IMG/VR virus record: IMGVR_UViG_2537562190_000015
DNA: 40,105 nt
DNA from: a virus
Lineage: Duplodnaviria; Heunggongvirae; Uroviricota; Caudoviricetes
Strand: one strand, 5' to 3'
Shown: piece by piece, positions 18,338 to 22,017 of the stretch
Layout: every line of letters begins with the position of its first letter
How positions within the stretch are numbered: the first letter of the stretch is position 1
Made by a program: the position numbers and the translations under genes
Notes under the pieces: generated by a model
The model's input: the letters and a program-made list of their open reading frames with translations, nothing else
Told to the model about the DNA's origin: nothing
Database searches by the model: none

Positions 18338-22017
<3,680 letters not shown>

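Follow-up and report, generated by a model that had tools for sequence, protein, structure and literature searches.

The terminase large subunit gene (A) of the lambdoid prophage in the window, that is, the whole stretch of 40,105 nt analysed here, is most probably an ordinary frameshift pseudogene in a prophage that was already defective; we put the probability of this reading at about 0.78. One T would have been lost from a T5 run, a -1 frameshift of the replication-slippage type, and translation would then run through two further codons (Leu-Ile) into a TGA stop. On the minus strand the sequence across the break reads ...CCCGAATAACCCGGATATTTTGATCTGACCGAAGCG..., with the codons CCG GAT ATT TTG ATC TGA of a lambda-type A gene; positions 20440-20381 of the same strand read ...TTCCCGAATAACCCGGATATTTTGATCTGAC.... 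At this site lambda (J02459) has ATATTTTTGATC, with five Ts at nt 2358-2362, and the window is one T short. The earlier note, made from the letters alone, had proposed that A is interrupted by loss of one nucleotide from a homopolymer and had called for an alignment to lambda A. That alignment bears the proposal out, with T4 in the window against T5 in J02459 and in the intact alleles, and the ORF end that it gave, ...FPNNPDILI* at the codons above, was confirmed on the minus strand.

The interrupted gene has 99.9% nucleotide identity to lambda A. When lambda proteins were aligned to the window by tblastn, gpA residues 1-552 fell in one frame and residues 545-641 in the next, and BLASTP against the intact 641-aa gpA of the O103:H2 strain 12009 gave 551 identical residues out of 552. 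The 553-aa ORF consists of native residues 1-551 followed by Leu-Ile and the TGA; 90 native gpA residues are lost. Translation of 20119-20388 on the minus strand (DLTEAQQLTAEEQVEKWVDGRKKILWDSKK...SGEDE*) yields gpA residues 553-641 with no change, in the -1 frame. Gene callers report part of this remainder separately, as a 72-aa ORF (20119-20337) that is called in many genomes and starts at an internal GTG at V570 (MDGRKK...); the 17 residues DLTEAQQLTAEEQVEKW are in frame with it but lie upstream of its GTG. One added T does restore the native frame, with residues 553-641 intact, as had been claimed; the further claim that the restored sequence is exactly what the 72-aa ORF encodes went too far, since that ORF covers only the part from V570 onward. 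The features discussed here are collected in the table.

Table. Features of the window bearing on the state of the terminase gene and of the prophage.
Feature	Position	Strand	Remarks
T4 run on the coding strand (A4 on the plus strand), site of the 1-nt deletion	20389..20392	-	T5 in intact alleles
Premature TGA stop in the shifted frame	20382..20384	-	
Truncated terminase large subunit (gpA/TerL) ORF, 553 codons	20382..22043	-	ends ...FPNNPDILI*
Out-of-frame remainder of A, gpA residues 553-641 unchanged	20119..20388	-	holds the 72-aa ORF 20119-20337
W (head-tail adaptor), intact	19916..20122	-	overlaps the end of A
Nu1, terminase small subunit, intact	22018..22563	-	100% identical to lambda Nu1
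cosN 12-nt cohesive-end sequence GGGCGGCGACCT	22741..22752	-	terminase substrate
H tail tape-measure pseudogene	9972..12213	-	two lesions common to 12009
G GGA AAG slippery heptamer, programmed -1 frameshift of the G/GT tail chaperone	12640..12646	-	intact, at the G/T overlap
Exact 42-nt Roche/454 paired-end circularisation linker	9822..9863	+	loxP core 9826-9859; in place of 405 nt of natural H/M

We compared the window with public sequences to place the prophage. The window is 100% identical to AEZT02000001.1:17853-57957, and the protein record EIH69102.1 names E. coli 93.0624. Searches with the two flanks of the window recovered this prophage from O103:H2, O45:H2 and related STEC, and in the O103:H2/O45:H2 STEC lineage its integration site is tRNA-Arg/intD (DLP12). 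The counterpart of the window in 12009 is the entire prophage, from intD (adjoining tRNA-Arg) to the tail-fibre assembly gene; relative to this finished O103:H2 sequence the window has 10 SNPs, one block change and a single 1-bp indel, the missing T of A. In 12009, the A CDS is intact at 641 aa, and H is annotated 'frameshifted'. We rejected the possibility that the window is lambda itself or DE3: only 11921-25289 is lambda-like (98-99.8%), the remainder is a different lambdoid backbone, and the window as a whole matches the O103:H2 prophage at 99.97%.

The genomic context cos - Nu1 - A - W - portal is present. Over the first 10.8 kb, 8 of the 24 differences from lambda are clustered in about 100 nt between cosN and the start of Nu1; this cluster is the cosB region (window 22578-22680 on the minus strand, lambda nt 73-176) and includes a 1-nt deletion, while elsewhere the head region is near-identical to lambda. 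The late region also carries cargo of the lysogenic-conversion type (window ~26590-27690 and 24500-24800): Q and the holin flank an OmpC/NmpC-like porin gene, and bor is present together with a divergent lom (44% identity to lambda Lom).

The position of the break determines which parts of the protein are lost. Two Pfam families are present in the gene, GpA_ATPase (PF05876) and GpA_nuclease (PF20454). The ATPase domain is complete (residues 47-285, E = 1.6e-50) and has the same extent as in lambda gpA. The nuclease domain, which lies at residues 322-600 in intact gpA, is incomplete in the 553-aa ORF, where it covers profile positions 2-236 of 294 compared with 2-286 in lambda gpA; profile positions 256-286 fall in the separate 72-aa ORF. 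The truncation takes away nuclease profile positions 237-294 together with the entire C-terminal prohead-binding tail, and this prohead/portal-binding tail is left without in-frame translation, residues 553-641 being present only in the -1 frame. A sequence search found no solved structure of a gpA-type TerL. The window gene and lambda gpA share their neighbours (cos, Nu1, A, W, B, C and so on) and both domains, but the T5 run of lambda is whole, whereas the window ORF stops at 551 + 2 residues and leaves the nuclease end and portal tail untranslated.

Lambda genetics provides a reference for such a loss. The lambda mutant Aam42, in which the last 5 residues are missing, fails to bind proheads and its yield is very low, yet it still nicks cos, and Aam42-type truncated gpA is recessive in co-infection (PMC4856287). 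The C-terminus of gpA contacts the portal (PMC4856287, citing Sippy & Feiss 1992, Frackman et al. 1984, Yeo & Feiss 1995). Aam42 and other A ambers resemble the window allele in truncating gpA at its C-terminus, and in them packaging stops once Complex I has formed, because the prohead-binding domain is lost; they differ in degree, as Aam42 loses 5 residues and nicks cos, whereas the window gpA loses 90, including part of the nuclease domain. With 90 residues gone, compared with 5 in Aam42, the protein should therefore be unable to package DNA. By this comparison, loss of function of the truncated gpA is well supported, and failure to cut cos as well is probable from the domain truncation. In the product the Nu1-binding N-terminus and the ATPase domain would be retained along with ~80% of the nuclease domain, and the nuclease end and the C-terminal tail, through which terminase docks on the portal, would be missing. 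Upon induction, the terminase-DNA complex would be expected, from lambda genetics, to stay undocked from proheads; cos cutting would probably be faulty and no DNA would be packaged. The earlier judgement that the C-terminal loss likely inactivates the terminase thus agrees with the domain cut and the Aam42 genetics, but the ~85 residues given for that loss are in fact 90.

The tail tape-measure gene H carries two lesions of its own: an 80-bp deletion between two G-runs (junction ~11921-11925) and, at ~10200, a G4 run that is one G short. Both are present in the finished 12009 sequence, and the alignment of the window to 12009 is ungapped there. In tblastn searches with lambda proteins, every other head and tail gene from Nu1 through J appeared at full length. 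The H lesions are common to the window and 12009, and A is intact in 12009; the prophage was therefore defective before A mutated, and its tail defect is ancient. The same comparison indicates that the H lesions predate the A lesion and arose independently, so that the prophage was unable to make tails before A broke, and the A lesion would be a further step of decay. The A lesion is probably recent, because neither half of the gene has any other change. Having arisen after the tape measure was lost, it would have met a selection for packaging that was already relaxed.

The window also contains an assembly artefact, 10.5 kb from the A site. Reverse-complemented, the 42-mer at 9822-9863 reads TCGTATAACTTCGTATAATGTATGCTATACGAAGTTATTACG, a sequence given as the 454 mate-pair circularisation linker (PMC5199103, PMC7038657). 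H after residue 810 and residues 1-93 of M are apparently replaced by these 42 nt, which include a perfect loxP. The linker junction was found in 0 of the 3,838 complete genomes having both flanks, and in all of these the flanks lie ~360 nt further apart; among public contigs, AEZT02000001.1 alone has a recorded 38-aa ORF whose end lies within the linker. We considered the loxP as a Cre-excision scar or a trace of engineering, and FRT and other scars were also sought; the match over the full 42 nt identifies the sequence as the 454 mate-pair linker. The linker is an assembly artefact, neither engineering nor a natural Cre site. Two contig ends with untrimmed linker reads may have been merged through their common linker, dropping the intervening 405 nt. 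In AEZT02 the linker fakes a 405-nt deletion and a loxP site, and could be misread as engineering or as a natural Cre target. Given the 454 linker in the assembly, it follows that flow-based reads, which are prone to homopolymer miscalls, contributed to it.

We surveyed the distribution of the two alleles. T5 was found in 29/29 GTDB representative hits, 120/120 IMG/VR hits and ~2,650 complete E. coli records; T4 was found only in datasets of this strain and in two error-ridden assemblies. A 48-nt T4 query also seeds on T5 targets, as the seed word slides along the T run, and identity classes were used instead. None of the complete O103/O45 genomes has T4, no T4 allele was found in the metagenome scan, and among 5,426 complete genomes the sole T4 match is the error-ridden ESBL 15 (NZ_CP041678.1 3271870-3311917). 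The other error-ridden assembly with a T5 to T4 change at the site is EPEC C342-62, where 7.9 kb of contig aligns to the window with 13 gaps. Four records carry the 553-aa product, and three of them are 100% identical to the window: AEZT02000001.1 (21.7 kb), NJWB01000068.1 (12.4 kb) and the Logan assembly of SRR387486 (8.4 kb).

Two observations on database quality arose from the same searches. In ESBL 15, a 'complete' RefSeq genome, nearly every late gene of the lambdoid prophage is annotated as frameshifted, which suggests that this prophage is an unpolished long-read region. Lambda A sequence is present in GTDB assemblies of unrelated bacteria (Tardiphaga, Kitasatospora, Chromatium, Neisseria, Streptococcus and Bacillus) and on ~48.4-48.5-kb contigs of Shewanella canadensis and of two Pseudomonas assemblies; these cases are evidently contamination with lambda control DNA.

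A different 1-nt loss affects the homologous gene of the 55989/O104:H4 clone, in which the G directly after the T5 run is missing and the same TGA stop is reached. The query for this delta-G allele is truly allele-specific, and the allele was found in 17 complete genomes from several platforms (e.g., NC_018658.1 3602659-3604583). RefSeq/PGAP annotates the O104:H4 gene as a frameshifted pseudogene (NC_018658 O3K_RS17710), and the other head genes of that prophage are intact. The delta-G allele is one substitution from the window allele and one deletion from wild type. The backbones of the two A genes differ by 18 SNPs, and an independent origin of the two breaks is therefore the simpler reading. 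The two cases are alike in the gene hit and in losing 1 nt at sites no more than one base apart; they are unlike in the nucleotide lost (G, not T), in the prophage backbone, and in that the delta-G allele has support from many platforms whereas the window allele is confined to the datasets of one strain. Chance is an adequate explanation for the recurrence of a break near the same position: nine homopolymers of at least 5 nt lie within the A gene, and the search selected breaks upstream of the 72-aa ORF.

The T4 run is probably a real mutation, though a homopolymer error deserves consideration: the strain would then truly have T5 and an intact A, and the T would have been dropped by an undercall of flow sequencing (454-type) or in assembly. 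The 454 linker in the same prophage, with 405 nt falsely deleted, demonstrates both the read type and imperfect finishing, and the change from T5 to T4 at exactly this site in the error-rich EPEC C342-62 and ESBL 15, the absence of T4 from all the other complete genomes and the otherwise perfect halves of A are all consistent with such an error. Against these points, T4 is the only 1-bp indel relative to the Sanger-finished 12009 across the 40-kb window, in which 164 homopolymer runs of at least 5 nt occur and the A-gene run alone differs from 12009. Flow-based errors strike longer runs first, and all of the runs of 6-8 nt (45/45) agree with 12009. T4 is present, too, in a second GenBank assembly, NJWB01, made up of short repeat-bounded contigs and accessioned years later, and in a k-mer assembly built directly from the SRR387486 reads and listed for 3 runs, both from the same strain's datasets; for T4 to stand in a read-level k-mer assembly, most of the reads would have to call it. 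We consider an undercall unlikely on this evidence.

If the deletion is real, the arrangement could still be tolerated or functional, through a -1 ribosome shift at the T run or through truncated gpA, with or without a separate C-terminal piece, being kept for a new role such as interference with packaging by superinfecting lambdoid phages. The second lineage, with another 1-nt loss one base away, the same TGA and an undecayed downstream frame, might be read in this way, as might the intact Nu1-binding N-terminus and ATPase part of the window gpA. However, a -1 shift would be needed to restore the frame, and no X XXY YYZ heptamer occurs among the zero-frame codons GAU AUU UUG AUC UGA; the one conceivable event is a P-site slip from UUG to UUU with a mismatch at the third position, and transcriptional slippage would require a longer run than the four Ts present. 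The predicted downstream fold (MFE -26.8 kcal/mol, z = -1.98) is unremarkable and not suggestive of a stimulatory structure, its stem including the slip site itself instead of lying 5-9 nt downstream. More than 99% of alleles retain T5 in frame, and the out-of-frame arrangement is not conserved, relatives being in frame except for one clone with a different deletion and the error-rich assemblies. The GTG start of the 72-aa ORF has no evident ribosome-binding site, and its product would be without 17 residues of the missing segment. The recessiveness of Aam42-type gpA in co-infection (PMC4856287) argues against dominant interference, and the prophage cannot make tails in any case. The programmed -1 frameshift of lambda G/GT offers a direct comparison, as it is a frame change in a late-operon gene of the same prophage; its heptamer G GGA AAG is conserved across phages, whereas the A site lacks such a motif and virtually all relatives have it in frame. 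The earlier note had named a programmed or tolerated slip site as what would overturn its reading; with no slippery heptamer and with the relatives in frame, that objection finds no support. Nothing at the A site indicates recoding, and we regard a retained function as highly improbable; the gene is best read as a plain pseudogene.

Both lineages keep an undecayed protein with the Nu1-binding, ATPase and partial nuclease regions, and both cut the terminase at the same codon. That two unrelated lineages do so because of a mutational hotspot (T5 beside GATC), or because a portal-blind terminase is kept as an exclusion function, is a speculation to which we give very little credence. Were it true, a portal-blind terminase would sequester or mis-cut the cos DNA of superinfecting lambdoid phages and would amount to prophage-encoded exclusion.

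We conclude that A is best read as a frameshift pseudogene in a decaying prophage, which is an already known kind of lesion. Its general significance is small, as a frameshifted terminase is a routine sign of prophage decay that annotation pipelines already flag. For the strain itself, with H and A both broken, the prophage is predicted to yield no infectious particles, and completeness predictions should not count it as intact.
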